DNA from: Candidatus Parcubacteria bacterium
GTDB taxonomy: Bacteria > Patescibacteriota > Patescibacteriia > UBA1558 > GWA2-36-10
Assembly: GCA_018664825.1 (NCBI GenBank)
Contig: JABJNO010000018.1
Span: 22,722-86,721 of the forward strand
Direction: 5' to 3'
DNA length: 64,000 nt
Shown here: in pieces, positions 1-51,000 of the stretch
How the letters are laid out: each line of letters starts with the position of its first letter
Numbering within the stretch: the first letter of the stretch is position 1
Position numbers and translations under genes: made by a program
The notes under the pieces: model-generated
What the model saw: the letters and a program-made list of their open reading frames with translations, nothing else
What the model was told of the DNA's origin: nothing
Database searches by the model: none

Positions 1-258
1 AATACCTCCACCCACCACCGCAACCAAAACAACTATCAGAAGAACCGAAATACCAACTACCTTTTGCTTTCCACCAACTGCTTTTTTGGGAGCGGCTGGC
101 AAAAATTTTTGCGGCATTATATGAACCTCTGAGTCATCAAGTTTGTTGGTGGCTGTAGCCACGCCTGCTTTGACACCCTTGCCATTTGCTTGGTCTTGAT
201 CAACAAATCCTTGCCCTACTTCTAAAATGTCTTTTTTCAATTCACTATTATCAAACAT
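1..258 (-). CDS. Partial (N-terminal) type-II membrane protein, paralog of the 262..1503 product; runs off the window edge
   Basis: The reverse-complement of 1..258 translates with no stops as MFDNSELKKDILEVGQGFVDQDQANGKGVKAGVATATNKLDDSEVHIMPQKFLPAAPKKAVGGKQKVVGISVLLIVVLVAVVGGGI. The ATG is at 256-258. The same MFD start and a following hydrophobic TM helix are seen in the upstream neighbor. This ORF is not in the supplied track. Confidence 0.45.
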   Translation of the reverse strand, partial: MFDNSELKKDILEVGQGFVDQDQANGKGVKAGVATATNKLDDSEVHIMPQKFLPAAPKKAVGGKQKVVGISVLLIVVLVAVVGGGI

Positions 259-261
259 ATA

Positions 262-1503
262 TTATTGTTCGTTTAAAAATGTAAAACTACTTAGCATTTC
301 TTGAAAAATTATCATGTACTCTGCGTTGGGCTCACCCGCCAAACTATAATCATAAATCAGTACAAAGAAATCCACTGTTCCTTCTTCTGCGGTTGGCCTG
401 AACAAAAGGACTCTATATCTATCTAAAGACATGTAAGCTGGCAAACCACCTATTGTATAATCTTCCCAAGAATCTTCTATCGCCAGATACTCTTGTTTTT
501 GTTCTTCTGTAAAATCTTGCATTCTGGCAGAGGTCACCCTTATGTGGTGTGATCCAATCCCAAAGACTCCTGGCCAAAATTGTACTTCTGACATATTATA
601 CCCTTCATCGGTAGAATCACTTTCGTAGATTGTCCAAGTTCCAGGTCTGTTGATAGAAAATCCAAAGTCTACATTTTGATGAGGAATATAAACCATATCA
701 TCACCACTAATTGTATCTATATCACCACCCCCTAACATACCCTCACCAAGTGGATTGTAGCCATTACCTACTTCTACTCCATCTTGATAGCCATCACCAT
801 CTGTATCGGCCTTATTTGGATCGGTGGCATATGTTTCTACCTCTTCATAATCTGTCAAACCATCCAGATCAGTGTCACTAATCAAAGGATTAGTGTTGTA
901 CTCGTTTACTTCCTGAGCATCAAATAGACCATCATTGTCTGTATCAGCATTGTTTATGTCTGTACCAAGACTTTTTTCTTCGGCATTGCTCAGCCCATCA
1001 AAATCATCATCAAAATCATTGTCATTTGTATTGTCATTTGTATTGGAATTATCTTCCGGAATATCATTGGTAACATTTATATTTTCTCCGCCAGTATCTT
1101 CGGTATTTTTATTCATAAAATAATACACTGCCCCGCCGGCCAAACCAAGGATAAAAATAACAATAATAATAGCTATTATTTTTTTGAGAGGACCTCCTCC
1201 ACCTCCATCAGCTACAATCATATCAGAAGCAGATGGTCCTGCGGGTGGTTGCCCCGGAGCTGGTGGTGGATTATTTTGAGAAATTGGAGTTATCTTGCCT
1301 GACTGAATAGCACTAGGTTTTTCTACTGCGCTTGCAGGAGCAGGATCAACATCAGCAAACATATCATCAATACCTCCTCCAACTGGTGCAGCCGGCGCTG
1401 CTGGCTGAGGAGTAGTTGGTTGAGGCGATACTGGTACTACTGGTTGAGGAGTAGTTGGTTGAGGAGTTTGTGTATTCTCGTCTTTTTTTAAATCATCAAA
1501 CAT
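262..1503 (-). CDS. Membrane-anchored protein with three thrombospondin type-3-like Ca-binding repeats (DTDxDGxxDxxE), a Pro/Thr/Gln-rich N-terminal tail and a C-terminal domain of unknown function
   Basis: The N-terminus carries PQPTTPQP repeats. There is one TM helix (IIAIIIVIFILGLAGGAVYYF). The repeats read DTDNDGLFDAQE, DTDLDGLTDYEE and DTDGDGYQDGVE. Confidence 0.6.
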   Translation of the reverse strand: MFDDLKKDENTQTPQPTTPQPVVPVSPQPTTPQPAAPAAPVGGGIDDMFADVDPAPASAVEKPSAIQSGKITPISQNNPPPAPGQPPAGPSASDMIVADGGGGGPLKKIIAIIIVIFILGLAGGAVYYFMNKNTEDTGGENINVTNDIPEDNSNTNDNTNDNDFDDDFDGLSNAEEKSLGTDINNADTDNDGLFDAQEVNEYNTNPLISDTDLDGLTDYEEVETYATDPNKADTDGDGYQDGVEVGNGYNPLGEGMLGGGDIDTISGDDMVYIPHQNVDFGFSINRPGTWTIYESDSTDEGYNMSEVQFWPGVFGIGSHHIRVTSARMQDFTEEQKQEYLAIEDSWEDYTIGGLPAYMSLDRYRVLLFRPTAEEGTVDFFVLIYDYSLAGEPNAEYMIIFQEMLSSFTFLNEQ

Positions 1504-1527: not shown

Positions 1528-4500
1528 TTAAATACCTGTGATTATATGGCGACAATATATAGTATTATTACCAAGACTACCTTCCCAAATAGGCATAGCT
1601 CCTGGCACCATGTGTCCCCAAGCTGGCGTACCATTTCCCCAGTAAGAATCTGTATCAGAATTCCACCAACCATCAGCCCAACCGAGTGTTATTGGAAGGT
1701 CCGGAGAATTCCAAGTAGGAGTATCGGCACCTGGATTATAAGTTACCTCACGCCAATCATTGGCAACGGTTTCTGATGGTGCGGTAGTTGTACAGTCCCA
1801 ATAAGGACTGCCTACATTTGTAGTAATACCATAGGACTCTGGTATGCATAAACTAGGCTTGTGCTCCCAATCATCCGTATCACCTTCATCAAAGGTTAAT
1901 TCAGTACTAGTATAATCTTTACACTCATCGTTATTCATACAGATATTCCCCTCACCATTACCCCCCGGATGAATACAATATCCTGGATCATGCGCCATAT
2001 CAACTGTACAATCCGGGACACTACTCGTACAAGTTTCTCCAGCATGTGAGCCCATATAACAAACACTTTGACAACGCATTGCCTGGCAAGAAAAACTCCC
2101 AACTATCCCAGCCGCACTACCGCCATCAGTAGCCTCAAAGGCAACTACGTTACCATTTGGATTATAATAGTTGAATACACCCGGAAAAGTAGTGTCATCA
2201 ATAAGAAACTCACAAGCTCCATCACCCGTTGCCTCAGCAAGTGGTTGTCCATAATCATCACATTGTTCCCAGTTGGTTCCTGTACCTACTGTTGTACCAT
2301 TTACATAAAGGGTAAAGCTATTATCAGCCATAAACTTGGCGTATAGTCTATTTTCTGTACAACAAGCGCCTTCGTACAAATCCTGACAATCATTGATACA
2401 AGTTACGGTACCAGCTACATATTGAGATGGATCATGCAAACGACAAGCTATTTCACCGTCACAAGCTTCTCCATGATAAGCTTGCACAATAGTATCACCG
2501 CAATATGGCCCTGAAGACTGACAGTCTATACCACAATAACCTGGGGAAGTAATACTATATACACCATTGTTAGATCCAGAATCACATATTTCACCATAAT
2601 CAGTAGTCCCGCCTGAACCATCCTGGGTAATACCATCACCACACCATCCTCCAAGGCCGGTACACATACTTCCTCCGCTATCATCACAATCATATTGATA
2701 TATTCTACCCAATTGCCAAAATACACCTGATTCATATGGAGTTGGAGAAAGGAAGTTGTGATAATCACATCCTTCATAATCTTCTTGGAATGTACCATCT
2801 CCACAATATCCTCCAGTAGTACCCGCACAATCATAACGACATTCGTATTGACTATCTATATCTGAGCTAGACACCGGAGTTATAGGGTAAAGAGGACTTG
2901 GCTCTAATGGTAATGGTAAGAAGAAGGAATCTCCTATATCACATATTTCACCATAATCAGTAGTCAAGCCTGAACCATCTTGGATAATACCATCACCACA
3001 CCAACCACCGTCGGTGGCTGTACAACGACCGTAGTCATTGCCAGTGGCAAAATCCTGATGTATACCTGACATACGACATTGATATTGTTCAAACTGACCT
3101 GTATATTCTCTTGGCGGTGTCACATAATCCGTGTCGCATAATTCATCAAAGGCATAATCAAATACTCCGTCACCACAATAATCATCTGTAAATTGACACT
3201 CAGTAGTACAACCATAAGTATTGGTAGGACCTGAAACATCTGGAGATGGCACGGTATATCCTACATAATCGCACTGCTCTCCTACTGGCTCTACTATACC
3301 ATTACCACAACTACCCAGATACGGCGTACCAGGTGAACAGACCACTGTACAACTACTTGTACAAACTACTTCTCCATGAGCAGGGGCATCTGCCGTACAA
3401 TCCCAGCCGCTTAATCCATCTGGGGAAGCTGATCCATCGCATTGTTCTATACCTTCTGTCCAAATATTATCACCACAAGCAGCGGCCGGAGTCATGTCAT
3501 TACAAACTGGTACACAAGAACGTCCTATTCCAGAATCACAGGTTGCAGTACCATTGCCTGCTGCACAAATATATTGAACACCCTCACATACTCCAGATGC
3601 ACTACAACTTTCACAAACTTCATCAAATGGCTGAACAAAGGTATCTCCGCAATATCCTCCACATTCGGCAGGAGTAAACGGTGGAGTTGGCTCTGTCCAT
3701 TGACACTCTACCAAAACTCCTCCCTCAATAGTTCCTGAAGGATTACAACCAATAGCTTGTTCATCCCACCAAGTAGCTCCAACTGGATTGACGGGTGACA
3801 TTGGGGCAGGAGGATTTGAACAACCCATTGTCCGGACATCTCTATCACAAGCTTCGCCAGGATCTATAATACCATTTCCACAATACGCACTTGTTGGAGT
3901 ACCCGGTGAATATGTTGAGAACCCGTCGCACTGTGGTAGTAGTCGAGCTATAATATTTTCAGTAGACTCACCAGCTCTATCCATGCCAGTAGGATTTGCT
4001 GGACCATTGTATAAAACAAGATCATAACGATATGGCACACCTCCTACAAACACAAAGGAGCCTGGTGTTTCTGTTTCAAAATTTGCACCTATTTCAAAGT
4101 CGATGCCTCCAACAGTATTTTCATATAAATATATTTGTGAATACTCTGTACAACCAAAAGTCAAAGTAGACTCATCCCAACATGTGTCTGGGTCAGCATC
4201 AGCACTCACACATCCATTAAATAAATTTACTGGATCAACTGGCAAAGAGGTTCCTAGATCTGAGCTAAGCTCCCCTTGCCAAGAAAGGGGCCATTTACTC
4301 GTTGACATACCATCAACAAAAGATCCGGAGGTAAGCAAAGGATAATAAGGAACACAACTTCCACCACCAGGACAAACGCCAGTCTCGGCACAATTATCAA
4401 TACTAGGATCATTGCTACAAGCCATATTATCTTCCCCATATTCTAAAATCTTTTCTTTTACACTCATCAATTCACCTAAACGCCTTGCATCACGCCTCAT

Positions 4501-7500
4501 CTTCTTTCCCAAAGATTCACAATAATCTCCTACATCTGGGCAATCAAAATCACTAGAACAAGCAGCGCCTGTACCGTTGCAGATATTAGTTCCTAGATCT
4601 AATCCTGAATTTTGATTAAATTCAAAATTTTCTAAAAGCTGATTGTATATCTCTTTAGTATCATCGCTAGCTCCCACATTGTGAGCTACCAAATAAATAT
4701 TTGTATAAATTGCTCCACCATTATAGTTTGTAGCAGCAACATAAGTAGTGGCTCCCACCTCTAGAGCTTCATAACCATCCACTTCTTTTAGAGTACCCTG
4801 ATCAGCTGGATAATCAAATTTTTTGTTATACCAATCTCTAATTGATGAATGTCCAAAGTTGCTCAACATCCTAACACTAATCAAATCAACTGTATCTGGA
4901 GGAGCTCCAGGTGTGACCGCAACGGGTCCAGCAAAACCAACATAGGCATAATTTGGCGGTCCTACGCAAGGAAAGATGCAATTTCTAGCTGCATAAACTT
5001 GATAATTATATGTTTGACCAGCTGTCACTCCAGTGTCTACCCACGTTTCTGTGTTGGCTGGTAAATTTGCTCTAAAACTATAACTTGGAGCCCCGTCTGG
5101 CCTCCTGTATACCCAAAAGGCTTCTTCTCTGGGACCTGAATCATTCCAATTCAATGTCACATCCACTTCAGAAGGGGTTGCTGTCAATCCCGTTGGCGGA
5201 AGAGGACTAAAGCCAGGCATTATAGCAGGCGGGAATGCTTCGGGCATTGAGCCTGGATAATTAGTTGTCTGGGCAAAAACAAAATTTGGTGTAAGCCAAC
5301 TAGCTATTTTATCTGTCAAAGATTTTGTGTTTGTTTGCGTATTATCTTCAAAAGCTAAGCTACCAAATCTATCAGCACCGCTGTCTGCATATACATTTAT
5401 CAAAAATAAATATTCTCCTAGATATTCTGGTGGATTAAAGTTTATCATTGTAGGTGGGTACGCCAAATAAGGCAAAGGAGTATCACCGTCTACACCAGTA
5501 TCATAACAATAATATGTTGAAAAATTATGCGCACCCTGAGTCCATGGATAACCAGCTAAACTTGGCCATGGATTTTCACACATAAACAACTCAATAATCG
5601 CAGAATCTGAACCAGAACCAGCATCAGTACTAGTAACATTTAAAGCTAAAACAAGATTTCCGTTGATAGGATTGGCCGTCAAATAAGTCTGTTGAGCGTC
5701 TGGTCCTATACCAACCAATGAACTACCCCCAATATCCCAATCAAATGTTAAAAATGTACCACTAAGCATATCGCCCCTAGCATCATAGACCAAGGCGTCA
5801 TATACATGCTGATTTCCAGCAACTCCGGTAAGCTCATCATCTATACAATCAGATCCACTGCAGTTGAACACATCAGATGGTGGGTCAATCTCCACAAAGC
5901 TGATCTGACAAATATGATCCCCGGTATCAAACATCCATCCATCTGCACCAAAGAGGTTGGGGAAAGTTATGGGACTAGCTGATAAATCCAAAGGCCTACC
6001 ATGTACGCTTAATATATTTGGAGCAACCATACTGACCGAGACCGTTTGATTGAAACCAAAATAATCACTTGGATTAAATATAGCCTCTGTTTCAAATACT
6101 CCATTGTTATCAGAATCTATTTTCCTAAGAACCCATGACCCTGGAACTTCGCACCAATACGAAGCTCCGTCAAAAAAACAACTTGTATCGGTTGATGGTC
6201 CTTCATATATTTTTATATTATTATTTATACTTTCACCATCCATTATCTCACTAAAGTGAATTGTGATGGCTGTATTTGGACATATATCCGTACCAAACAT
6301 CAGGGGCTCATAACTGATAATATAGGGATCAGTAAGACTTGAGGCTGACATATCAACATCAAAGATAGCTGTTTCAGCATGATTCACCGGTACTCCTGTA
6401 GTATTGTCAGTAATTGTTCCAACTATCGGAGCTAGACCAGTACCTGTTAGTAGTTGATTTCTAATATCAACACTCATTTGATCTGCGGGACCAAAAACAT
6501 CTGCAACCGGAACCTGCAAAGAAGTCCAATTATAGGTACACATACCAACTGGACATTGTACTGGTACAAGACCACAAGCACTATTGCTCATTGGCATTAT
6601 GTCATACTCCTCTACTTGACCAATGGTATCTGCAGTATGACTATCTGGGGTGACGTCTGCTCCGGTAATAGGACAATCTATATCACTAGTGCCAAATGTC
6701 CAACTATGTCCAGCAAAGGTATTTCCAAAATTATCCTCAAAACCAGCTGGTACAGTCACCGTGTAAGTCTCATTGACTAACAATGGAATATGATTGAGCA
6801 TAAGTCCAAATCCAGCAGCAATCCCTGTAAGAGGATTTCCTACATCTATATATTCAGTACCACTACTATCCTCAATACTAAATGACCCAATAACTGCAGC
6901 CAAAGTTGTGGCATTGGGTTGATTATTAAATGTAATAGTCACTGCCGAAGTCAGGCAAGCTGCACCACAGTTTGGAGTAAAGTCGGTAAAAGTAAAAATA
7001 TCTGAACTACCAATTATACTTACATCCAAAACTCCAGTATCCGCAAACACTTCTGGTGCCCCTCCGCTATTGTCTGTCAGTTGGAGTCCAATATTTGTAA
7101 AATCATCACCAACAATCAAAGTGGTAACAGCGTTGGTGGTTTGATTATTTATATTATTTATCAAAGCAACACTTGCATCACTTTCTGACCATGCATAATC
7201 ACAAGTACCGGCTGGGCAAGATACAGGGTACCAACCGCAACTACTATTATTGGCCATTGGCAAAGCACTGTATGGCACTATATCTCCAGGGGCAGTAGCA
7301 ACAATCGTCTCGTTGTCTGGATTGATAGATACATCTTCTATTGAGCACTCTTCTTCACCAGTTGTGAATACCCAGACAAAATCTGCACCCAGGGATTCAC
7401 TATAAATATTTTGTAAAGCGCCTGGTACTGTCACGGTATAAGTGTCATTAAAATTAAATGGAACAATACCATGTTCAATCTCTATGCTATTTGGACTCAA

Positions 7501-10500
7501 TTGAGTCACATTTGTTCTCCACTCTGTTCCTCCGCTGTCCCTAATATGAAAATCAGGTTCATTGGTAGTAATGCTAGCAAGTGGTATTGGAGAATTAAAT
7601 TCTACTACAACCATTGGATTACTACAGGCCCCATTACAATTTGGATCATAATCTATTATTTCCAAATCTACCGCATTGATGATTGGATTTGTAGCCCCGG
7701 TGTATGTCACAGTATCTATCATGGTACTAGCCTCCAAAGTCACATGATTGGGAGTTTCATTTTCTGTAGCATTGAGACCAGTCAAACCCGTAAGGCCTCT
7801 ACTGGTCATCAAGTTTGTAGTCGGACTAATAGAAGCATAAGGAGGGGCTGTGGCTGGCTCTGCTGTAATAGCCCAATCCCAATTATAATTTTCTCCACAC
7901 ATATTACAATTATCAGCTTGTGGGGAAGCATAAAATGATCTAGTTTGACCTATGTTTGTATCACCAGAGGGTGATTGTGGTGATATGGTCACTCCGCTCA
8001 CTGGACACATATCTGCCGTTGGCCTTGTTTTGAAATGCCAATCAGGAGCAGGATTAGCAACAGTAGGCCAAGTATCTCCACCTACTTCCGTGTTGAATCC
8101 AGGACCAGCCCCCATAACTATCCTATACCATGTATCTGGATTTAAATTAGCAGCAGTTGGATCAAATACTATACCTTCTCTATTGCTACCACTATTTATA
8201 ATACTCGAGGCACCTGGCACAGCTGTAGTGCAGGTAGCTGCTGAAAAAGCCCCGCCCACATTACACTCTGTAACCATGAAATTGGCAGGAATCAACAAAT
8301 CCGCATCTACGACATCCCTAGTAAATAAGGCTACTATATTTGTGCTCAAATATGCGTCTTCAGAATCATATCCATCCATATCATCTGGCCATGGAGATGG
8401 AGATTGCAAATTGTTACTACAATCATGTGAATAGGCAAGCCCAAAAGGATCTGCCTCGGTATTTAGTGTCCAAGTATAAGTACAAGTATTTAGACTTGAA
8501 CAGCCTCCAGCGGGAGCGCAGGTATTATCAGAACAGCACTCATCACCAAGTCCGTAGGCCTGGCAGTATGCATTGCTACCACCACAACTACCTACATTGA
8601 ACATCATAGAGTTTGAAGGCGTAGGTGAGGAATCATTTACCACCATCACTGATCCTGACTCAGCAAGACCAGGTACCGCCACTCCTTCTATATCATTATT
8701 GGCCCAAGAGCTTCCTGTGCCCCATGAATTTAAATTGAAATCAAAAACATCACTTGCTGCACCCAGAGTTCCAAAATTGTCACCAGCCAAATCTACCACT
8801 ACTCCACCGGCCGGTCCGTTGTCTGGGTGAAGATAACAAAGTCCTGGACCTGGTAGCCCAGCTGTTATATCAATCAAATAATCATTACTATCAATACCAT
8901 CGCTGGTAGTCACCCTAGCCACACGATCAATGCCAATACTAACTCCAGTAGGCACCTTTACTATAATCTGTGTATCCTGCCAAAAAGAGCTACTACATAT
9001 AGGAGGGAAAGTAAAATCCCCATTTATACCATCAAGTAACAATTGTCCTTGGGTATTTCCAAAGTTGACTCCACGGACAGTGAGGTATTGCCCTTCTGGA
9101 CCACCATCGGGAGTGATCTCTGTGATCCTAGGCAAACCGCTATCCACTGGTAAAGCAGAAAATGGAAAAGCATTACTAATATCTGTACCATTTTGCATAA
9201 CTACTCCTACCTCACCAATTACATTTGGTACATCTGGATTAGCCGTTGAATCATTTACTACATTTGTATTAGGACTAGTAAAGCCTCCGAAAATAGCCTC
9301 GCTACCAAGAAAACGTATACCGCGAACATTTACAGAGTCTTCATAAGATCCGGTTGGCGGAGTCAGTTGACAGATACCCGGTCTATTAAGAGAGTTGTCT
9401 GAATTGAATAAAACTGAATTACTACTAGCCACTCCATCTGACCTCTCTAAAGTCAGTTGCCCCGTGCCCGCTCCTACGGGTACAACTACTATCACAGCTG
9501 TGTCAGTCCAAAGATTACTACACAAACCACCAGTAAGGACACTTGGCCATTCATTTGGCACTACACCACCTGAACCATCGTCAAAATATACCTGTCCCTG
9601 AGCACAGCCTGTGTCTTCACAAAAATTACTACCATAGACGGTAACAAAATTACCCTCTTCACTGGTATCTGGAGAAATAGAAGAAATAAATGGATCTCCA
9701 CTAGCACCAGAACTGCCAGAAGAACACTCGGAATAAGCTGAGCAAGAATTACTATCACAACAACCAGAAAGGCATTCACCGTTGCCGCCACAAGTGACAT
9801 TGAACCAGGCTGGATTTGATGTGTCTACTCCGACTTGGACAGTGACGTCACTAGATAGTGCATCTGTAGGCACCGTCAGGGTGATCAAGTCATTTGCCCA
9901 AGAATGAGCAATATCTGCATTGTTATAAATATTTCGAACAAGCTCTGTACCAGACACAGGAGAAGTATTTATCAAAACCTGATCATCCGGCGGACCAAAG
10001 TTGTCACCTTCTATATCAAAAGAAAATGTACCAGGATCAGAAGGCCCTTGGCTTGGGTTGAGGCAAAATATACTAGGCTGAGGCCCTGAAGAATTTATAT
10101 TGAAGAAACTGCCAAAAGTATGGAAATCACCTGTCTGACTCGTGACGGTAACTGGATAGTTTCCTGGAGTGACATTTGGAACTATCACTACTGTCTTCCA
10201 ATATCCACTACCAACGCTGAGCTCATCCCACACTGGAGCTCCTCCACAAGTTGCTAGATCAGCTACATTACCAGAACCAAATTCTACCTGACTAGTACCT
10301 GCTACATAATTGTCAAAATGCCAACCACGGATAGTAACCGCTGAACCAACACCGTTTGTAAGTGGTGTTATTTCACAGATACGGACTTCATTTGGATTGG
10401 TCGGTCTTGCACAGGTGCCTCCTGTGGGTGGTAAAGTAACACTATTAGTATTACCACTATTACCTGCGCCTGTTTCATCGTATAAAGATTGTAAAATAAA

Positions 10501-10824
10501 TCTAGAAATAGCATAAGCAGACACTATGATCACCAAGCCTATGACCGCACTAACTATGATCATCTTGGCTCGCTGAATCTTGTCTGTATTGCCAGCTGAG
10601 GTCATCCAAATAAATCCACCATACAGTATCAAAACCACAGCTAGTATTCCTAGAAATCCTAGGAAGATATTTATTATTCCGGCAATCGTATCCTGCAACG
10701 ATCTAGTGCCTAGATTGACATCCGTCAAATCATTGACACCAAAGACATCTTGAGCAAAGACTTTTTGCACAGCCAAAAAGCCTAGGATGAAAGTTGCGGT
10801 GATTGTGGCCAAAAATTTCTTCAT
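1528..10824 (-). CDS. Giant (3098 aa) cysteine-rich surface protein with an N-terminal signal peptide plus double hydrophobic-helix module, IPT/TIG-like and Fn3 domains, and multiple myxo-type cysteine-rich repeats (CGDG/CGNG...E.CD)
   Basis: It is a single uninterrupted ORF. The signal peptide MKKFLATITATFILGFLAVQKVFA is followed by a TrbC/VirB2-like two-helix module. IPT-like segments include ITEITPDGGPEGQYLTVRGVNFG. An Fn3 segment reads LTATPSEVDVTLNWND...YNYQVYA. Repeats such as WCGDGIIQDGSGLTTDYGEICD and CGNGIVEPVGEQCD recur. Confidence 0.8.
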   Translation of the reverse strand: MKKFLATITATFILGFLAVQKVFAQDVFGVNDLTDVNLGTRSLQDTIAGIINIFLGFLGILAVVLILYGGFIWMTSAGNTDKIQRAKMIIVSAVIGLVIIVSAYAISRFILQSLYDETGAGNSGNTNSVTLPPTGGTCARPTNPNEVRICEITPLTNGVGSAVTIRGWHFDNYVAGTSQVEFGSGNVADLATCGGAPVWDELSVGSGYWKTVVIVPNVTPGNYPVTVTSQTGDFHTFGSFFNINSSGPQPSIFCLNPSQGPSDPGTFSFDIEGDNFGPPDDQVLINTSPVSGTELVRNIYNNADIAHSWANDLITLTVPTDALSSDVTVQVGVDTSNPAWFNVTCGGNGECLSGCCDSNSCSAYSECSSGSSGASGDPFISSISPDTSEEGNFVTVYGSNFCEDTGCAQGQVYFDDGSGGVVPNEWPSVLTGGLCSNLWTDTAVIVVVPVGAGTGQLTLERSDGVASSNSVLFNSDNSLNRPGICQLTPPTGSYEDSVNVRGIRFLGSEAIFGGFTSPNTNVVNDSTANPDVPNVIGEVGVVMQNGTDISNAFPFSALPVDSGLPRITEITPDGGPEGQYLTVRGVNFGNTQGQLLLDGINGDFTFPPICSSSFWQDTQIIVKVPTGVSIGIDRVARVTTSDGIDSNDYLIDITAGLPGPGLCYLHPDNGPAGGVVVDLAGDNFGTLGAASDVFDFNLNSWGTGSSWANNDIEGVAVPGLAESGSVMVVNDSSPTPSNSMMFNVGSCGGSNAYCQAYGLGDECCSDNTCAPAGGCSSLNTCTYTWTLNTEADPFGLAYSHDCSNNLQSPSPWPDDMDGYDSEDAYLSTNIVALFTRDVVDADLLIPANFMVTECNVGGAFSAATCTTAVPGASSIINSGSNREGIVFDPTAANLNPDTWYRIVMGAGPGFNTEVGGDTWPTVANPAPDWHFKTRPTADMCPVSGVTISPQSPSGDTNIGQTRSFYASPQADNCNMCGENYNWDWAITAEPATAPPYASISPTTNLMTSRGLTGLTGLNATENETPNHVTLEASTMIDTVTYTGATNPIINAVDLEIIDYDPNCNGACSNPMVVVEFNSPIPLASITTNEPDFHIRDSGGTEWRTNVTQLSPNSIEIEHGIVPFNFNDTYTVTVPGALQNIYSESLGADFVWVFTTGEEECSIEDVSINPDNETIVATAPGDIVPYSALPMANNSSCGWYPVSCPAGTCDYAWSESDASVALINNINNQTTNAVTTLIVGDDFTNIGLQLTDNSGGAPEVFADTGVLDVSIIGSSDIFTFTDFTPNCGAACLTSAVTITFNNQPNATTLAAVIGSFSIEDSSGTEYIDVGNPLTGIAAGFGLMLNHIPLLVNETYTVTVPAGFEDNFGNTFAGHSWTFGTSDIDCPITGADVTPDSHTADTIGQVEEYDIMPMSNSACGLVPVQCPVGMCTYNWTSLQVPVADVFGPADQMSVDIRNQLLTGTGLAPIVGTITDNTTGVPVNHAETAIFDVDMSASSLTDPYIISYEPLMFGTDICPNTAITIHFSEIMDGESINNNIKIYEGPSTDTSCFFDGASYWCEVPGSWVLRKIDSDNNGVFETEAIFNPSDYFGFNQTVSVSMVAPNILSVHGRPLDLSASPITFPNLFGADGWMFDTGDHICQISFVEIDPPSDVFNCSGSDCIDDELTGVAGNQHVYDALVYDARGDMLSGTFLTFDWDIGGSSLVGIGPDAQQTYLTANPINGNLVLALNVTSTDAGSGSDSAIIELFMCENPWPSLAGYPWTQGAHNFSTYYCYDTGVDGDTPLPYLAYPPTMINFNPPEYLGEYLFLINVYADSGADRFGSLAFEDNTQTNTKSLTDKIASWLTPNFVFAQTTNYPGSMPEAFPPAIMPGFSPLPPTGLTATPSEVDVTLNWNDSGPREEAFWVYRRPDGAPSYSFRANLPANTETWVDTGVTAGQTYNYQVYAARNCIFPCVGPPNYAYVGFAGPVAVTPGAPPDTVDLISVRMLSNFGHSSIRDWYNKKFDYPADQGTLKEVDGYEALEVGATTYVAATNYNGGAIYTNIYLVAHNVGASDDTKEIYNQLLENFEFNQNSGLDLGTNICNGTGAACSSDFDCPDVGDYCESLGKKMRRDARRLGELMSVKEKILEYGEDNMACSNDPSIDNCAETGVCPGGGSCVPYYPLLTSGSFVDGMSTSKWPLSWQGELSSDLGTSLPVDPVNLFNGCVSADADPDTCWDESTLTFGCTEYSQIYLYENTVGGIDFEIGANFETETPGSFVFVGGVPYRYDLVLYNGPANPTGMDRAGESTENIIARLLPQCDGFSTYSPGTPTSAYCGNGIIDPGEACDRDVRTMGCSNPPAPMSPVNPVGATWWDEQAIGCNPSGTIEGGVLVECQWTEPTPPFTPAECGGYCGDTFVQPFDEVCESCSASGVCEGVQYICAAGNGTATCDSGIGRSCVPVCNDMTPAAACGDNIWTEGIEQCDGSASPDGLSGWDCTADAPAHGEVVCTSSCTVVCSPGTPYLGSCGNGIVEPVGEQCDYVGYTVPSPDVSGPTNTYGCTTECQFTDDYCGDGVFDYAFDELCDTDYVTPPREYTGQFEQYQCRMSGIHQDFATGNDYGRCTATDGGWCGDGIIQDGSGLTTDYGEICDIGDSFFLPLPLEPSPLYPITPVSSSDIDSQYECRYDCAGTTGGYCGDGTFQEDYEGCDYHNFLSPTPYESGVFWQLGRIYQYDCDDSGGSMCTGLGGWCGDGITQDGSGGTTDYGEICDSGSNNGVYSITSPGYCGIDCQSSGPYCGDTIVQAYHGEACDGEIACRLHDPSQYVAGTVTCINDCQDLYEGACCTENRLYAKFMADNSFTLYVNGTTVGTGTNWEQCDDYGQPLAEATGDGACEFLIDDTTFPGVFNYYNPNGNVVAFEATDGGSAAGIVGSFSCQAMRCQSVCYMGSHAGETCTSSVPDCTVDMAHDPGYCIHPGGNGEGNICMNNDECKDYTSTELTFDEGDTDDWEHKPSLCIPESYGITTNVGSPYWDCTTTAPSETVANDWREVTYNPGADTPTWNSPDLPITLGWADGWWNSDTDSYWGNGTPAWGHMVPGAMPIWEGSLGNNTIYCRHIITGI
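2581..2660. repeat. Intragenic direct repeat copy A (about 75-80 nt) that encodes one of the duplicated Cys-rich WCGDGI.QDGSG.TTDYGEICD units
   Basis: It is near-identical by eye to 2938..3010 (atcacatatttcaccataatcagtagtc...accatcaccacacca). Confidence 0.4.
2938..3010. repeat. Intragenic direct repeat copy B
   Basis: It is near-identical to 2581..2660. Confidence 0.4.
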
Positions 10825-10848: not shown

Positions 10849-12471
10849 CTAATTACTTGTGCCGCAATTTGTACCAGAATTAGGCCAAGGACAGTCGGTA
10901 CCAACTGCTGCATTATTATTATCACAAAGACACGTGCCTGTAGGATCTGTACATTCACAGAAATACCAACAGTTTTGTCTCAAATCACTGATTCCAGAAG
11001 TAAGAGTCGGGGTATAGTCTGTAGATGGATCCAGTATATCGTGCCTTATCTCGACAATATGACTACTATTGAGTCCCAACCAAAAATTGACATCTCCAAG
11101 CGTGCTCTGATGAAATTGGATGTTTGTACTATTGATTGAGCTAGACAATAAATTTTCATCAAAAGTAACTCTGATTGGCTCAGATACAGAAGCATCGTCG
11201 TTGTCTTCCATATTGTTTATTTCTGGTGGATCAAGATCGATTGTATTATTGGTGCTAAATGTCCAGGTAAAATCTCCTCCTGCACCACCATCGCCATCAC
11301 CATCCAAAATATTTCCAGCCATGTCTGTAATCACATTTGGAAAAGCCCCGGTACCACTGACCGTGGATAGCATGGTAGCGCTAGCAGGCAAACAATATAC
11401 ATCTCCTCCACAAGAGTTTGAACCACACCAAACATCAGTAATAAATTCAACAGTTTGATATTGATTTGATATCCAATATTGTCCATCCAGAGTAACCCCA
11501 CCCTCGTCTACTGTAATATTTGTAAAAGGAGGATGTACACCAGCTGAAACTATAGGATTGACGGGTTCAGTAAAGTTTATTTGAACTACGCTATTTCGAG
11601 GATTATCAAGACCAACTGGCAAAACAGTATCTACTCTAGGTGGTGTGATATCTACTTCATTGTTTACTGTAAAGTCCCAGTCATAGTATCCGGTAAATGG
11701 GAAAGCAGTCGCCCCTGCTACAGTAGCCAGATCATCCAGGGTCATTTTGTAGGGAACGTCACCAACGTCATCACCCAAAAGAGGTGCTGGATCAAACTGG
11801 AAATTCAGCAACTCGGCTGTATCATAAGTGACTATCAGTTCTGAATTGATCAAACTAACACCGTCGTGAGGAGCCAAAATAATATGGCTTGTATCAGCCT
11901 GACACTCTACCAATGTACCAACTATAGTAGTACAGGTAGTCCCAACCACTATATCCGTAGCATCAATTGGTTCTTTGAAAGTTACAAAAATATTGGTATT
12001 TCTAGGAATCTCACGTGCATTACGAGAAGGATAATGACTTTCTATAACTCCACCTCCCAAACCAAGTCCTCCGGTATATCCGCCACCAGATCCACCACTA
12101 CCCCCTACCGTTCCGTCGTATCCTTCTTGAAGTAAGAAGCGGGCAATAGCATAAGAAGATAATATTATAGCTAGTCCAATAACACCGTTGATAATAATCT
12201 TTTTAGCACGATCAATTTTATCTGCATTGCCACCGGAAGTCATCCAAATATAACCACCATACAAAATAATAACGGTGGCTAAAATACCTAGGAAACCTAG
12301 GAATATATTAATAATACCAGCAACCATATCTCTAAGGTCTCTAGTACCCAAATTTGTATTGGACAAATCATTTACTCCATATACATCTTGAGCGCTGGCT
12401 ACTTCTGGCAACAAAAAAATAACTGCAAAAAAGAGAAATAATAATACAGTTATTTTTTTATTAGTTAGCAT
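10849..12471 (-). CDS. 540-aa secreted/anchored protein that shares the N-terminal signal plus double-helix module with the giant protein; its passenger region is different, Gly-rich and Cys-rich
   Basis: Its N-terminus reads AQDVYGVNDLSNTNLGTRDLRDMVAGIINIFLGFLGILATVIILYGGYIWMTSGGNADKIDRAKKII. The corresponding region of the 3098-aa protein reads AQDVFGVNDLTDVNLGTRSLQDTIAGIINIFLGFLGILAVVLILYGGFIWMTSAGNTDKIQRAKMII. Only 24 nt separate the two genes. Confidence 0.7.
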   Translation of the reverse strand: MLTNKKITVLLFLFFAVIFLLPEVASAQDVYGVNDLSNTNLGTRDLRDMVAGIINIFLGFLGILATVIILYGGYIWMTSGGNADKIDRAKKIIINGVIGLAIILSSYAIARFLLQEGYDGTVGGSGGSGGGYTGGLGLGGGVIESHYPSRNAREIPRNTNIFVTFKEPIDATDIVVGTTCTTIVGTLVECQADTSHIILAPHDGVSLINSELIVTYDTAELLNFQFDPAPLLGDDVGDVPYKMTLDDLATVAGATAFPFTGYYDWDFTVNNEVDITPPRVDTVLPVGLDNPRNSVVQINFTEPVNPIVSAGVHPPFTNITVDEGGVTLDGQYWISNQYQTVEFITDVWCGSNSCGGDVYCLPASATMLSTVSGTGAFPNVITDMAGNILDGDGDGGAGGDFTWTFSTNNTIDLDPPEINNMEDNDDASVSEPIRVTFDENLLSSSINSTNIQFHQSTLGDVNFWLGLNSSHIVEIRHDILDPSTDYTPTLTSGISDLRQNCWYFCECTDPTGTCLCDNNNAAVGTDCPWPNSGTNCGTSN

Positions 12472-15557: not shown

Positions 15558-17126
15558 ATGGCCTCAGACTTTAGAAAACGAAAAATAAACCTTCTTCGAG
15601 AAGAAATGGACACAGTTGACATTCCTGTCAGCACTCCTACAAAAGAGCCCATTCACCGGCCAAAGATAAAAAAAGTTAAATCAAAAAAATCTTTAAAAAG
15701 GAGAATGAGCTCCTGCTTTTTTATTATATTGATTATATTTTTTACCGGTACTTGGCTAGTTTTGTCAGCCGATAACAATAGTTTTTTGGCTGGTGTGAAA
15801 AATAGCTACTTAGTCAGACAAATTACTCACATCATATCTAGTAAAGACAAACACCTAAAGGGTGAAAAAAATGATCGGATAAATTTTGTCCTGATGGGCA
15901 TGGGTGGTCCTGGGCACAATGGTCCCTATCTGACCGATACTATCATCATTGCAAGTTTCAAACCAAGTACAAAAGAAGCTGCCGTCTTCTCTCTGCCTCG
16001 TGATATGATTGTACCACTTTCCAAAAATGATTATCGAAAAATAAATTCTATCTATACCATCGGTCAAAATAAAGAAAAAGATGGCGGTGGTCCTTTAATG
16101 AAGAAAATTCTTTCTGAAACACTGGATATGCCTATACATTATTTTGCTGCCGTTGATTTCAATGGTTTTGTAGAAATGATAGATGCTATCGGTGGAGTAG
16201 AAGTAGATGTCCAAAATAGTTTTAAAGACCACCAATTTCCAACTGCTGACTACAAAATACAGACTGTTTCTTTTGAAGAAGGTAAACAAGATATGGATGG
16301 CCTAACTGCCTTGAGATTTGCTAGATCAAGACACGGCAACAATGGAGAAGGTTCTGACTTTGCCCGCATCAAAAGACAGCAAATGATTTTGATTTCTGCC
16401 AAAGAAAAAGTGACTTCTTTCAATACCCTGATCAACCCAAAAAAAATTACCGATCTATTTTCTTTGTTCAACAAATATACAACTACTGACCTCGAACCAT
16501 GGGAAGCCGTCAAACTTGTCCATATGAGCAAAGGTATGAATTCTGAAAGCATCGTTTCTCAGTCTATAGATGATAGGCCAGGCGGTTATCTCAAATCAGG
16601 CTATTCTATCAATGGTGCTTATATCCTCCAACCTGTAGCAGGAAACTATGACCAAATCAAATTATTGGTCCAAAATATTTTTGACTTATTGGAAGTAAAC
16701 AATGAAAACGCCAAGATAGTCATCCAAAATGGTACCGAAATACCAGGTCTAGCCCTAGAAGCACTCAATCATCTAGACCAGATGAATTACAATGTCCTCC
16801 GCTATAGCAATGCCGATACCCAGGACAAAATAAAAACTACCATATACCAATATACCAAAGATAAACCAAAAACTACTCACTCACTAGAAGTTGTTTTCCA
16901 GACAAAGACTACCACCAATATACCACTTGAATACTCAAATACAGTAGTTACTTCCGATTGGAATATCGTAGATGACAAAGGAGAATACGAACAATTGGAC
17001 TTTTTGATAATTCTAGGCGTAGACCAACAAATCAACTCTAATATAGAAATAATAACTACGATCGACCCATCTTTACTCAACACCTCCACAAATTCGACTA
17101 CAGATGGTATAATTGAAGAAGAATAA
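15558..17126 (+). CDS. LytR-CpsA-Psr (LCP) family cell-envelope phosphotransferase
   Basis: It has an N-terminal TM and an LCP core (FVLMGMGGPGHNGPYLTDTIIIASF...LPRDM). Confidence 0.75.
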   Translation: MASDFRKRKINLLREEMDTVDIPVSTPTKEPIHRPKIKKVKSKKSLKRRMSSCFFIILIIFFTGTWLVLSADNNSFLAGVKNSYLVRQITHIISSKDKHLKGEKNDRINFVLMGMGGPGHNGPYLTDTIIIASFKPSTKEAAVFSLPRDMIVPLSKNDYRKINSIYTIGQNKEKDGGGPLMKKILSETLDMPIHYFAAVDFNGFVEMIDAIGGVEVDVQNSFKDHQFPTADYKIQTVSFEEGKQDMDGLTALRFARSRHGNNGEGSDFARIKRQQMILISAKEKVTSFNTLINPKKITDLFSLFNKYTTTDLEPWEAVKLVHMSKGMNSESIVSQSIDDRPGGYLKSGYSINGAYILQPVAGNYDQIKLLVQNIFDLLEVNNENAKIVIQNGTEIPGLALEALNHLDQMNYNVLRYSNADTQDKIKTTIYQYTKDKPKTTHSLEVVFQTKTTTNIPLEYSNTVVTSDWNIVDDKGEYEQLDFLIILGVDQQINSNIEIITTIDPSLLNTSTNSTTDGIIEEE

Positions 17127-37665: not shown

Positions 37666-39042
<1,377 letters not shown>

Positions 39043-39063
39043 TTAAAATTTTCACTTAATATA

Positions 39064-39978
39064 TTATTCTAAAGCGGCGCTACCTGCTGCAATCTCGGCA
39101 ATTTCACCGGTAATGCCAGCTTGACGAGCCTGATTATATGCTAATGTCAAATCATCTATCATATCACCAGCAGCATCAGTTGCGTTTCTCATGGCAAACA
39201 TACGAGCACTGTGTTCGGAAGCTTCTGACTCCAAAACTGATTGATAAATTTGTACTTCTACTAATCTTGGTAAAAAGGCATCCAATACTTGTCTTGTATC
39301 TGGTTCAAAAATAAACTCTGCAAAACTATCAACGCTTATTTTTTCAACCTTATCTTTTCCGTGTTTGATATGTCCTAATCTTTCATCTATCTCTGGCACT
39401 ATTGGTAACAATTGTTTTACGTGGGGCACTTGTTTTATAGATGACATAAAGTCAGTATAAGCTACAAAAACTTTATCATATTTCTTGGCCAAAAAATCTT
39501 TGGTAATCATATGAGAAATTGGCCTAATATCTTCTGAAGAAGCTGTAATGTCTTCTTTGTGAAAATCAGCTACTAGGCTTATATTGTGGCGACGAGCTTC
39601 GTCGCGTCCTTTTGTACCACAAGTAATAACACTTGTCTCTACTCTCTCTGGGTGATGAATCTCAATAGATTTAATTACCTTGTTTACCAAGGTAGCATTA
39701 AAACTACCACAAAGACCACGATTGGTACTAATCAGTACTACGGCCACTTTTTTTACTTTCTTTGGTTCGATAAAAAATGGATGTTTGTTGGTATCTATTT
39801 TCTTTACCAAGTGTAGCACTGTATCCCAAACTAAATCAGAATAAGAACGTGAAGATAGTACGCGTGATACTGCTTTACGCATTTTGGCGGCTGACACCAA
39901 TTCCATAGCCTTGGTAATTTTTTTGGTGTTTTTTACCGATTTTATTCTTCTTTGTATGTCTCTACTTGCCTGGGGCAT
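39064..39978 (-). CDS. atpG: F1 ATP synthase gamma subunit
   Basis: Sequence and position support this. Confidence 0.8.
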   Translation of the reverse strand: MPQASRDIQRRIKSVKNTKKITKAMELVSAAKMRKAVSRVLSSRSYSDLVWDTVLHLVKKIDTNKHPFFIEPKKVKKVAVVLISTNRGLCGSFNATLVNKVIKSIEIHHPERVETSVITCGTKGRDEARRHNISLVADFHKEDITASSEDIRPISHMITKDFLAKKYDKVFVAYTDFMSSIKQVPHVKQLLPIVPEIDERLGHIKHGKDKVEKISVDSFAEFIFEPDTRQVLDAFLPRLVEVQIYQSVLESEASEHSARMFAMRNATDAAGDMIDDLTLAYNQARQAGITGEIAEIAAGSAALE

Positions 39979-39999
39979 ATATTTAATCGACTAATTAAA

Positions 40000-41547
40000 T
40001 TATTTATCTTCTTTCTTTTCTTCTGCACCTTCTACTTTTTCTTCTAGCTCTACCAAGTCAGTGATGACATTTTTTAGCTTTTCTTCATCACCTTCTGATA
40101 GTTCACTAGTTTTTTCAATATTATCCATTGCATCTTTGGCTTCAGCATCAAGCTTGCTAAATAACTTTTCTTCAAAAGCATGCAAATTTTCTACTGGCAC
40201 CTTGTCCAAATAACCATTGGCAGCTGCATAGATAATACCAATTTGTTTTGATTGGGGTAGTGGATTGTATTGACCTTGTTTTAATACTTCGGTTATACGA
40301 GCACCACGATCAAGTAATTGCTTGGTAGAATCATCAAGATCTGATCCAAATTGAGCAAAGGCTTCCATTTCTCTATATTGAGCTAAATCAATCTTAAGTT
40401 TACCGGCTACTTTTTTCATAGCCTTCTTTTGAGCAGCAGAACCTACACGAGACACTGAAAGTCCAGTTGATAGAGCTGGCCTGATTCCTTTATAGAACAA
40501 ATCTGTTTCCAAGAAAATCTGACCATCAGTAATAGAAATTACGTTGGTTGGAATATAAGCTGAAATATCACCGGCTTGAGTTTCGATAATTGGAAGAGCT
40601 GTTAGTGATCCTCCGCCTTCAGCATCACTCATCTTAGCAGCACGTTCTAACAATCTTGAGTGAACATAAAAAACATCACCAGGATAAGCCTCACGTCCAG
40701 GAGGTCTCTTTAGAAGTAAAGAAATCTGACGATAAGCTACAGCATGTTTTGATAAATCATCATATATAACTAATACATCTTTACCTTGATCCATAAAATA
40801 TTCTCCCATAGAACACCCTGCATAAGGAGCAATATAGGATAAAGCTGCTGACTCAGATGCACCAGCTACAACTACGGTTGTATAATCCATAGCACCAGTT
40901 TCTTCAAGCTTGGCAACTATTCTAGCTACCTTTGATTCTTTTTGACCGATGGCGACATAAATACAAATCACATCTTTACCTTTTTGGTTGATAATAGCAT
41001 CGATGGCCAAAGCAGTTTTACCAATTTGACGATCACCAATGATCAACTCACGTTGTCCTTTGCCAATAGGAATAATAGAATCAATTACTTTGATCCCAGT
41101 TTCTAGTGGCTCAAATACTGATTGACGAGTGATAACACCAGGAGCAATCTTTTCTACTGGATAATGGTCTTTTGATTTGATTTCACCTTTACCATCAATA
41201 GCGGCCCCCAGTGGATTTACCACGCGGCCAACTACTGCTTCACCAACTGGTACTTCAAGAATACGTTTTGTTCTTTTTACTTTATCACCCTCTTTTAGAG
41301 CGCCGTATTCACCAAGAATAATAACACCAATAGAGTGTTCTTCTAAGTTCAAAACCACACCGTAGATTTTATCTCCAGCTTTGGTTTCAAATTCAAGCAT
41401 CTCAGAAGACATAGCGTCTGATAGTCCAGAAACTTTGGCAATACCGTCACCCACTTCGATAACTTCGCCAACTGTTTCTTCTTTGACATCTGACTGCCAA
41501 TCCTCTAGTTGCTTTTGTAAACTTTTTACTAAATGATCGTAAGACAT
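40000..41547 (-). CDS. atpA: F1 ATP synthase alpha subunit
   Basis: It carries GDRQIGKT. Confidence 0.9.
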
Positions 41548-48095: not shown

Positions 48096-51000
48096 CTATT
48101 TTTCTATTCCATCTAGAATTTCATTCATACTTTTCTCAACTTTTTCGGCAATAATTTTTTTGAGCAGCCTGCTAAAAGATTCAACAATTTGCTCGGGAGT
48201 ATTGGCGCGGATTACATTTTCCTTGCCATGTCTTTCGCTAAGACCCTCAAGGGCTGCCTCATCTCCTTCGTGATCACCAATTGCAAACCCACCAACTCCA
48301 ATACCCGTCTCTCCTTTGAAAGCAGCTAAATTTTCATTGGCTTCTTCATTTTTGCCCAAAAATCCACCGTCACAAATTTGGATTACTACTTCAGTCAATT
48401 TGTTATCAGCAATCATTTGTTTGAGCTCTGGATCATTACGATCTCTGAGCATCTTGATCCATAGATCTGCATCAAAGGTGACTTCGCTAGCATTTATTTT
48501 TTTAAATGCCCTCAGGGTACTGATAGTCTCTGCGTCAATGTCTATTTGTGGTTTTTCAGATTCTTCGTCATCCAAAAATGATAGATCCTGCACATCAAAT
48601 TCTTTTATTTTTCTGGCCTCACCATCGTTTCCAAAAAGCCATAATTGAGTGTCACAAATTATATCCAAATTTTCTGGAGCACTATCACCCAAAATCTCTC
48701 TCATTTTGTCTCTAAACAATATCCTAAAAGATCTTAAAGAAGAGTTGAGTAACATTATAGACATGCGCATTTGATCAATCTTACCGCTCATACTACCAGA
48801 ATTATCAATTGCCAAAGTCATGCGCAACATTTTTGGTCTGAGTTCTGAAATAACTCTTTCTACAAGTTGTTCGTAAATAAGTCTATCATCAACCTCAATT
48901 CCCATTTCTATTTCTGGAAAATGTTTTTGCAATCTTTTGACGTCCAATTTTCCACTACGATAATATTTGTCTTTAAAGACTTCGATACGACTAGCAATAT
49001 TGTTTACTACCTCTAGCCAATTTTTGGCCATCTTGTCAGCATAGGGCCTTATCTTTTTTTCTAGTTCTATAAAATCTTTGACAACCCCCTCATTGCTAAG
49101 GTCTTTTCCAGACCAACCACTGTCCGCATCATCGCCCGCTTCAGCCTCTGCTTTGTCCAGGGCTTCCAATAATTTTTTTATCCTAGCTTTGTCGTATTTA
49201 GCTTCTTTATACTCTTCTGATTTTTTGGCTTCTTCTAATTCTCTTAGATTGGCCTCCCTTTGATCTTGCTCTATCATTTGTTCTAGAGCTTCTTTGAGAG
49301 GATTTACAATATCTTTTAGGTCAGTATCATCACCATCTTGATCTTCGGGATTTGTCTCTTGTGGATCACCTTCTCCATCTTCATTATCGTCATCGTCGTC
49401 TCCATCTTCATTGTCGTCGTCTTTATCATCAAAATAATTTTTACGTTTATCAGGTGAAGATTTTGAAGATTTTCCCTTTTGTTTTTTTTGATCTTTATTA
49501 TATAAATTTAAATTAACATACGGATCAAACACTTCTTGTATATCATAAGTGTAATCTGTACTACCTGCCATAGCCTGTACTTCTCTCTCTTCAGAATATT
49601 CTACGGTTACAGAAATTACCTCTCCATCTTTTCCTTCTGTCACTTGGGTAATTATACCTATCTTTCCTCTGTTTGGATCATTTTTATCCACATTGATAAT
49701 TTTGTCACCCTGAGACCAAACTTTCTCTTCCATGTCTGGATCACCACCATCACCGCCATCACCACCTTCTCCTTCGCCTTTTTCTTCTGGCATTGTGACA
49801 TCAAAGCTATCATCCAAAATACAAAGCATAGTAAATATCGGCTCCAAAGTAGTCCTCATTATTTTACTTCTTTCGCTTTGATTATGTTTTAGGGGAAATG
49901 TCCAAGAATATTTTTTTGATTTTGTTTTAGTCTTAAATTCTTCAAAAATATCCAAAAAACTCACGTCTTTTTTTCTCTCTATACCTAATTGAGCTATTAC
50001 TTTTCTCAACCCTGCCTTGTACTGCATCTTGGCTCTTTTGGTATTTACTTGATCAGTAGTCAGGTTGTCAAAAAAATCATTCATCCTGCGGATAAACTCT
50101 GGTTGATTGTTTTTATGTTTTTTATATATTGTATGTAATCCTGGGACAGCAGATAGATTCATAACATTTGACTGAAAATCTGGGTCAACTTCTTCGACCT
50201 TGCCATTTCTTTCTTCAAAATTGGCTACCTTGACAGTAGTAGTCATAAATTCAATATATCTTTTGAGTTGAGCTGGGTCGTCTTTGTATTTTTCCAAAAC
50301 CTTGTTGAGTAATTCTTCATACACTTCGTCTATTGGGCCATTGAGAGCCCTTTCCACATCTTCGTGTACCACAAATTTTCCATTTGGATTTTCTGGACTC
50401 TGGATATCATCTTCATCAAGATCCAACATTTGATTTTTTATAAAAAAAGTCATAAATTGACCAGATCTCATCATGTCTGGTTTTACTTTGGTAAAATCAA
50501 TACCTTGTTCATGGTCTTCGGCTGTAAGTTTGACCAAATTTCCTTTGCCTTTACCAACTTTTTTTATTTCTTTCTTGTCTGGGTTTTTAGGATCTTCTAC
50601 TTCTGCGTATTCCCCGTTACCCTCTCCTACTTCGTTGTACATTACAAAAAGAAGATCGGTATAAGCATCTTTTATTTCTTGGGCTCTTTTTGGAGATACA
50701 TTTTCTCCAAAGTGAGCTGTTTGTTTGACCAGATGATTGACAATCCCATCTTCTAAAACATTATAAAAATGTCTATAAGTATTAAAAAGAGAAAGTGTTT
50801 TTTGTGAATTATCCTTATCACGCATTCTTTTTCTTTCTTCGTATTTGAATTGAGCTATCTGACCATGTTTACCAGCTGGATCAAGCTCTTCCATGGTTTT
50901 ACGATGAGCAAACTCATGAAGCATACCAAACATAATTTGTTCTATATTCATGCCTGTGCCTTCTTTTGAGTTTTTGAATTCTGGCACACTCAAACAAATA

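Follow-up and report, generated by a model that had tools for sequence, protein, structure and literature searches.

A life attached to other microbes is assumed for Patescibacteria, and to our knowledge the building and anchoring of their surface structures is almost unexplored outside the cultivated Saccharibacteria. In the division proteins FtsN, ZipA and MapZ a disordered tail with short motifs is joined through one transmembrane helix and a spacer to a globular ectodomain, and the proteins TraA and TraB belong to the context of outer-membrane exchange. In Myxococcus xanthus TraB combines a membrane barrel with an OmpA domain on the wall side and, between the two, short Ca2+-binding thrombospondin type 3 (TSP3) repeats; it shares an operon with the polymorphic surface receptor TraA, forms a 1:1 complex with it and anchors it to the wall (PMC12045341). 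Where PMC12102498 deals with the T4SS_pilin/TrbC module (T4SS, type IV secretion system) it describes it as widespread in Patescibacteria, and the relevant part of PMC10633639 describes the predicted pilin subunits of the Southlakia epibionticum T4SS gene cluster as essential. Here we analyze a stretch of 64,000 nucleotides of Candidatus Parcubacteria bacterium (GCA_018664825.1, contig JABJNO010000018.1, positions 22,722 to 86,721; hereafter the window), in which two consecutive genes, A and B, lie directly downstream of the gene for a giant surface protein with an N-terminal pilin module. We propose, with a probability of about one half, that the products of A and B span the envelope and serve the pilin-module surface proteins as tethers or as partners in assembly, a reading drawn from gene order and domain types. 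The genes concerned are the following:

10849..12471, minus strand: 540-residue protein with T4SS_pilin (E=2.1e-7) and Big_5 domains, first gene of the module
1528..10824, minus strand: giant surface protein of 3098 residues with an N-terminal VirB2/T4SS_pilin membrane hairpin (PF18895, E=1.2e-8) and Big_5, presumed partner of A and B
262..1503, minus strand: gene A, open reading frame for a predicted bitopic (N-in) membrane protein of 413 residues, a long-form member of the 'MFDDLK' family
1..258, minus strand: gene B, open reading frame for the first 86 of 354 residues of a paralog of A, the rest cut off by the window edge

The first argument for this proposal is gene order. We found the giant T4SS_pilin gene followed by A and then B, in the same order and on the same strand, in 24/24 loci examined, including four distant ones (L027-L030) whose FtsZ and FtsA share about 60% and 44-50% identity, respectively, with those of the window organism (locus labels denote public contigs or loci compared with the window, L001 being the contig identical to it). 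In the 20 nearer loci, with FtsZ 79-87% identical, the order is (rpsU-yqeY), the 540-residue protein, the giant, zero to two small open reading frames, A, B, (ybeY), dgkA, ftsA, ftsZ and nrdR, and the 540-residue gene precedes the giant gene in every case in which the flanking sequence is long enough to show it; among the four distant loci, a complete Kerfeldbacteria genome reads giant, a 571-residue protein, A, B, ybeY, dgkA, ftsA, ftsZ. In L027, L029 and L030 A and B also stand directly after the giant gene, and are followed by clpP on the opposite strand, secD, secF, a gene for a Wzy_C protein, the prepilin peptidase gene pilD, and then ftsA-ftsZ, so that adjacency to the giant gene survives the rearrangement whereas adjacency to ybeY, dgkA and ftsA does not. 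The gaps are short, 24 nucleotides between the giant gene and A and 3 between A and B, no terminator-like hairpin lies between the genes for the giant, A and B, and B overlaps ybeY; the four genes probably form one co-transcribed surface module. A, B and the giant protein moreover all evolve fast, with identities in the same loci of 34-47% for A, 24-49% for B and 31-39% for the giant against 79-87% for FtsZ and 75-82% for NrdR, as would be expected of co-exposed surface components. The initial annotation had noted the position after two pilin-module proteins and suggested from it an accessory, assembly or anchoring role: the position is confirmed, with an N-terminal T4SS_pilin domain in both upstream proteins, and the synteny just described strongly supports the link to them, with the role itself still read from gene order and domain types.

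In the giant protein residues 1-2700 align with most of 17 orthologs and the last ~350 (window 1528..2580) with only one or two, which is what would be expected if the N-terminal VirB2-like hairpin anchors the protein and its C-terminus forms the far, diversifying end; in its hypervariability this end resembles the tips of host-binding adhesins. No Myxococcus-type Cys-rich repeat model, which would have strengthened the analogy with TraA, matched the giant protein in NCBIfam. Some of the compared loci hold an extra protein of 239-262 residues between the giant gene and A (L007:9200-9988 and L008:9261-9980), in which a transmembrane helix is combined with a region of Cys-rich repeats; Pfam matches nothing in it, and the window has no such gene.

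Both genes are recovered in public data beyond the window. A protein identical to A is present on 7 public contigs (annotated as 'hypothetical protein HON36_04060, Candidatus Parcubacteria bacterium'), and the contig JABHIT010000043.1 (GCA_018670855.1) matches the window with 0 mismatches across 9190 bases and carries B intact (L001:8937-10001). Inside the window only residues 1-86 of B are encoded, that is, its motif and transmembrane helix, and everything we say of the remainder comes from this identical contig. The parts of the two proteins that lie in the window are these, with structure predictions by AlphaFold2 (AF2) and their scores in the predicted local distance difference test (pLDDT):

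1192..1503, minus strand: cytoplasmic tail of A, residues 1-104, predicted disordered (pLDDT <50), rich in Pro, Gln and Ala (21% Pro)
1486..1503, minus strand: A motif 1, MFDDLK, beginning at residue 1; M1, F2, D3, D4 and K6 invariant (n=18 family members)
1342..1368, minus strand: A motif 2, DDMFADVDP, residues 46-54; D47 and F49 invariant, D46, M48, D53 and P54 at least 90% conserved
1276..1323, minus strand: A motif 3, EKPSAIQSGKITPISQ, residues 61-76; S64 and P73 invariant, A65 and G69 at least 90% conserved
1111..1191, minus strand: transmembrane helix of A, residues 105-131 (hydropathy maximum at residues 109-127; AF2 helix 105-131)
1012..1110, minus strand: extracytoplasmic spacer of A, residues 132-164, rich in Asn, Asp and Thr (30% Asn)
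745..1011, minus strand: four bacterial TSP3 repeats of A, residues 165-253, with GYNPLG at the end (PF18884 and motif)
265..717, minus strand: predicted C-terminal PsbP/Mog1-like domain of A, residues 263-413
100..129, minus strand: cytoplasmic motif of B, EVHIMPQKFL, residues 44-53; M48 and P49 invariant, F52 at least 90% conserved (n=15 orthologs)
1..60, minus strand: transmembrane helix of B, starting at about residue 66-67 and running past the window (sequence; AF2 helix at residues 64-92)

As judged from profile comparison, A and B are true paralogs. Default BLASTP with composition correction gave no significant match between them; without the correction they align at 31% identity over 229 residues, and hhalign of the A family against the B family reached 100% probability (E=6.2e-42) over 180 columns that span two TSP3 repeats and the C-terminal domain. 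They share a layout of disordered cytoplasmic tail, one transmembrane helix, a spacer rich in Asn, Asp and Thr (30-35% Asn in the two proteins), TSP3 repeats, of which A has four and B two, and ~150 residues of C-terminal domain. The only strongly hydrophobic stretch in A is residues 109-127, and the late helix, the basic residues before it and the strongly acidic C-terminal parts (net charge -53 in A, -34 in B) fit an N-in, single-pass orientation of both. The initial description of A and B as consecutive type-II proteins with a single transmembrane helix is borne out by these features, and its PQPTTPQP repeats in the Pro-rich tail of A are present in two copies, at residues 14 and 27. Likewise the second, partial reading frame proved stop-free to 354 residues when extended on the identical contig. 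As for the shared MFD start (MFDDLKKD in A; MFDNSELKKD in B, whose start codon is at 258 on the minus strand), it is seen here and almost all A-family members have it, but it fails as a trait of both families, being found in only 7/15 B orthologs.

The TSP3 repeats of A are well supported, with a Pfam TSP3_bac (PF18884) score of 65.3 bits (E=4.3e-18) against a gathering cut-off of 25, so that the suggestion of TSP3 repeats holds; instead of the three repeats originally counted, however, there are four matched stretches, starting at residues 165, 187, 210 and 233. The last three are perfect DxDxDGxxDxxE motifs and the one at 165 has one D replaced by N; an Asp ladder (D187, D189, D191, D210, D212, D214, D233, D235 and D237) is invariant. 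In B two DxDxD...E repeats at residues 166-201 align with repeats 3-4 of A. The complete B protein carries all the features of its family, i.e. the HxMPxKF motif, one transmembrane helix, an Asn-rich spacer, two TSP3 repeats and a PsbP-like domain ending in an MMLNSF-like sequence, and the AF2 model of its TSP3 pair and C-terminal domain is very confident (pLDDT >90, residues 166-345). For A the model is confident for the transmembrane helix and C-terminal domain alone (pLDDT about 80-89).

In these models the C-terminal domain of A and B is a predicted PsbP/Mog1-like alpha-beta-alpha sandwich, a fold common to PsbP, Mog1, LpqN and DcrB. At the level of sequence the relationship is distant: the PsbP family (PF01789) matched 3/18 A-family members with a best E of 0.028 and PsbP_2 (PF18933) 1/18 with E=7.9e-4, both below family threshold, the A protein of this organism matched neither profile, and the family profile reached PsbP in the PDB (2xb3) at a sub-threshold E=0.046. 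A word-index search with the C-terminal domain of A alone returned no matches, those obtained having come with the full-length query. No OmpA (PF00691) or beta-barrel domain was found in A or B by Pfam scan.

We found members of the A family in metagenome-assembled genomes labeled Parcubacteria, Komeilibacteria, Nomurabacteria and Kerfeldbacteria. We define the family by an N-terminal MFDD(L/V)K, DDMFAxxDP, KPSAxQSGK (KPSAxQSGKxxP), one transmembrane helix and 3-4 TSP3 repeats, all of which the A protein of the window possesses; between the near-invariant short motifs the tails have variable Pro/Gln-rich spacers, and in the most distant members motif 2 reads EDIFAEV or DDIFAETD. An exhaustive search of 1.84 billion representative proteins with a profile of the A tail gave only 63 matches (25 with E<=1e-10), all but one of them between 79 and 413 residues in length and with a tail that starts at residue 1 or close to it, and TSP3_bac was present in 6/10 of those scanned. 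The tail is thus confined to proteins of this design in a limited range of lineages, which also speaks for the tether proposal. The distal end of A is less constant. Across the 24 loci it is PsbP-like in 4 (the window included), a domain of ~100 residues with several cysteines and no Pfam match in 5 (L017:654-1760 and also L020, L021, L023 and L024), and absent in the rest; in those five loci this looks like domain swapping.

B on the other hand always keeps the PsbP-like domain, together with a cytoplasmic motif of the form [DE][IV]H[VIS]MPxKF[LV]. In distant relatives a mini-reading frame of 57-67 residues lies between A and B (L027:10799-10975, L029:9835-10008 and L030:9805-10008) and overlaps the start of B by 8 nucleotides. 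The translated products of L027 and L029 (57-58 residues) consist of just an LH[IV]MPQ motif and a transmembrane helix, and the mini-frame is best read as a putative stand-alone B-type cytoplasmic motif. Elsewhere in the window we found no carriers of HxMPxKF or DDMFxxxD. One B ortholog of 438 residues (L025:10876-12192) has an insertion of ~100 residues between the transmembrane helix and the TSP3 repeats that contains ILDDLQDLKTVLDLYFRDFQAYPAYL and by eye resembles the globular domain of a type IV pilin or pseudopilin; Pfam gave no confirmation. Neither family is described in the open-access literature as far as our search of it went.

If A and B are tethers, the following picture would result. 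The transmembrane helix evident from each sequence anchors the protein in the cytoplasmic membrane, and the flexible Asn-rich spacer with the two to four Ca2+-stiffened TSP3 repeats would keep the distal end off the membrane, in the zone of the wall; this stalk role is suggested by the role of TSP3 repeats in OmpA-type proteins and in TraB, and calcium binding by the repeats of A and B is assumed from their motifs. The PsbP/Mog1-like head, which is always present in B and is present in A of this organism, might bind a protein or envelope ligand, the likeliest being the 540-residue pilin-module protein or that conserved part of the giant protein which lies near the membrane; these two proteins would themselves be anchored by a VirB2-like hairpin. 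On the inner side the short linear motifs of the tails (MFDDLK, DDMFAxxDP and KPSAxQSGK in A; HxMPxKF in B) may dock a cytoplasmic partner. TraB in Myxococcus gives this picture its precedent.

Several of our own observations weigh against it. The housekeeping flanks are also conserved in most loci (rpsU-yqeY upstream; ybeY-dgkA-ftsA-ftsZ-nrdR downstream), so that part of the synteny may be inheritance inside one clade. The ectodomain of A is inconstant, as its PsbP-like head occurs in 4/24 loci only, and any binding function of A must then sit in the TSP3 region or the tail. Furthermore, the OmpA TSP3 structure (Dai et al. 2017), in the form in which it is cited in PMC12045341, depends on an intra-repeat disulfide for calcium binding, whereas A and B contain no cysteine, which is why we speak of their Ca2+ binding as assumed. 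Finally, in B of this organism PF18884 gave no Pfam match at E<=1, and TSP3 is assigned there by motif and homology, although a precomputed PF18884 match exists in many B orthologs.

The alternative that stands up best to these data, which we nevertheless consider unlikely, is that the two proteins bind Ca2+ and act on their own in the wall or at the surface (S-layer or wall organizers, or ligand or lipid binders like LpqN and DcrB) and that their synteny was merely inherited in small, stable genomes. Collinearity from rpsU to nrdR in most loci would fit such a history, and TSP3 repeats are present in many unrelated envelope proteins. However, A and B remained beside the giant gene where the flanks rearranged, the 3- and 24-nucleotide gaps suggest translational or transcriptional coupling, and the conserved cytoplasmic motifs favor a specific intracellular partner over a passive wall protein.

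We regard it as more doubtful still that A and B are bitopic, divisome-associated factors like FtsN, ZipA and MapZ, with tails that bind FtsA or FtsZ and ectodomains that engage the wall. The ftsA-ftsZ pair does lie downstream in every locus, directly after ybeY-dgkA in 20 and within about 7 kb in L027, L029 and L030, and the Pro-rich disordered tail with short motifs, transmembrane helix, spacer and globular ectodomain of A and B are laid out as in FtsN and MapZ. Yet in those three distant loci clpP on the opposite strand and four further genes stand between B and ftsA although A and B keep their place next to the giant gene, both proteins have evolved several-fold faster than FtsA and FtsZ, and profile scans detected no SPOR, POTRA, ZipA_C, MapZ or other divisome domain in either. 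The B motif EVHIMPQKFLPAAPKK also loosely resembles the FtsZ C-terminal peptide of this organism (LDIPAFLRKK), but has P-x-x-F-L where the latter has P-x-F-L. FtsZ itself (L001:12101-13282) ends in a canonical C-terminal peptide, EEELDIPAFLRKKLKDR; we considered the B motif as a mimic of it and retain this as no more than speculation, the Pro-Phe spacing being off by one residue.

A combination of the two ideas, in which the pair would act as a trans-envelope coupling device whose tails bind FtsA, FtsZ or another cytoskeletal partner while the ectodomains hold the giant host-binding adhesin, strikes us as a long shot. Were it true, the adhesin might be positioned relative to the division site, or host contact relayed to growth and division, and an obligate epibiont would have a direct mechanical or signaling link between attachment and the cell cycle. 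The last alternative, that the reading frames are not real genes or that the TSP3 and 'MFD' likeness is compositional chance in an AT-rich genome, could appeal to the lack of a significant A-B match in default BLASTP and to long low-complexity stretches in both proteins, and is excluded by orthologs of A and B with conserved motifs and lengths in 24 loci, by a TSP3_bac score of 65 bits versus a cut-off of 25, by hhalign (E=6e-42) and by the confident AF2 folds.

Turning to the rest of the window, we found no T4SS machinery genes in its 64 kb, the remainder being housekeeping. A gene for a LytR_cpsA_psr (LCP) family protein with LytR_C (15558..17126, plus strand) lies ~3 kb from the surface module and may be relevant to the attachment of wall polymers. 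Two adjacent open reading frames of 965 and 1053 residues occupy 45135..48032 and 48096..51257 (minus strand); a weak similarity to AAA_5 (dynein-related ATPase) is all that Pfam finds in the first, and in the second it finds nothing. Genes for the ATP synthase alpha and beta subunits (PF00006, PF00306) lie at 37666..41547 (minus strand).

What emerges is a conserved four-gene surface module in Parcubacteria-group lineages, composed of a 540-residue protein, a giant with a variable tip and two paralogous candidate tethers, and with it two unannotated families are described at the level of domains and conserved motifs and receive a hypothesis on their partners that can be tested. Should the tether proposal be right, the motifs, the PsbP-like head and the Ca2+ sites would be defined targets for cryo-electron tomography, complex prediction and heterologous biochemistry. 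New here are both families, their cytoplasmic motifs, the architecture of transmembrane helix, TSP3 repeats and PsbP-like domain, and the fixed place in the four-gene module; TSP3 repeats, the PsbP-like fold, bitopic anchors and pilin-module proteins in Patescibacteria are of kinds already known.

Set against these known kinds, A and B resemble each in part. Similar to FtsN, ZipA and MapZ in overall layout and in nearness to ftsA-ftsZ, they differ from them in having no SPOR, ZipA_C or MapZ domain and in staying with the giant gene, not with ftsA, on rearrangement. The pilins treated in the relevant parts of PMC12102498 and PMC10633639 are small proteins encoded near virB4, and A and B do not appear there, whereas here giant proteins encoded among housekeeping genes have the module as their N-terminal anchor. 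Within the PsbP/Mog1/DUF1795-like superfamily (PsbP, LpqN, Apa, MTC28, DcrB, Tsi3, TplEi and BT_1490) the sequence likeness of A and B lies below family thresholds, and none of the PsbP/Mog1-like structures listed shows this fold fused to a transmembrane anchor and TSP3 repeats. Over ~20% of its length A shares 45-64% identity with OmpA-family proteins of Bacteroidota and Ignavibacteria, by way of the TSP3 repeats; outside the repeats the architecture of A and B is unrelated to PF18884 proteins (OmpA-family, CglD, MtsD), and the NCBIfam matches of A to CglD, EbpS and MtsD are sub-threshold and driven by the repeats. In function the closest comparison is with TraB. Like it, A and B have an anchor-TSP3-globular layout and neighbor the gene for a large surface protein, in their case following immediately on that of a giant whose tip varies; unlike TraB, which has an outer-membrane beta-barrel and an OmpA peptidoglycan-binding domain and belongs to a diderm, they are anchored by one alpha-helical transmembrane segment, carry a PsbP-like head and a cytoplasmic tail, and belong to a Patescibacterium that is presumably monoderm. 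The likeness to TraB is an analogy in layout and gene context, with homology limited to the TSP3 repeats; as A and B lack the OmpA and barrel domains, it is not one of family membership. Should A and B indeed be tethers, they would form a monoderm counterpart of the TraA/TraB arrangement.

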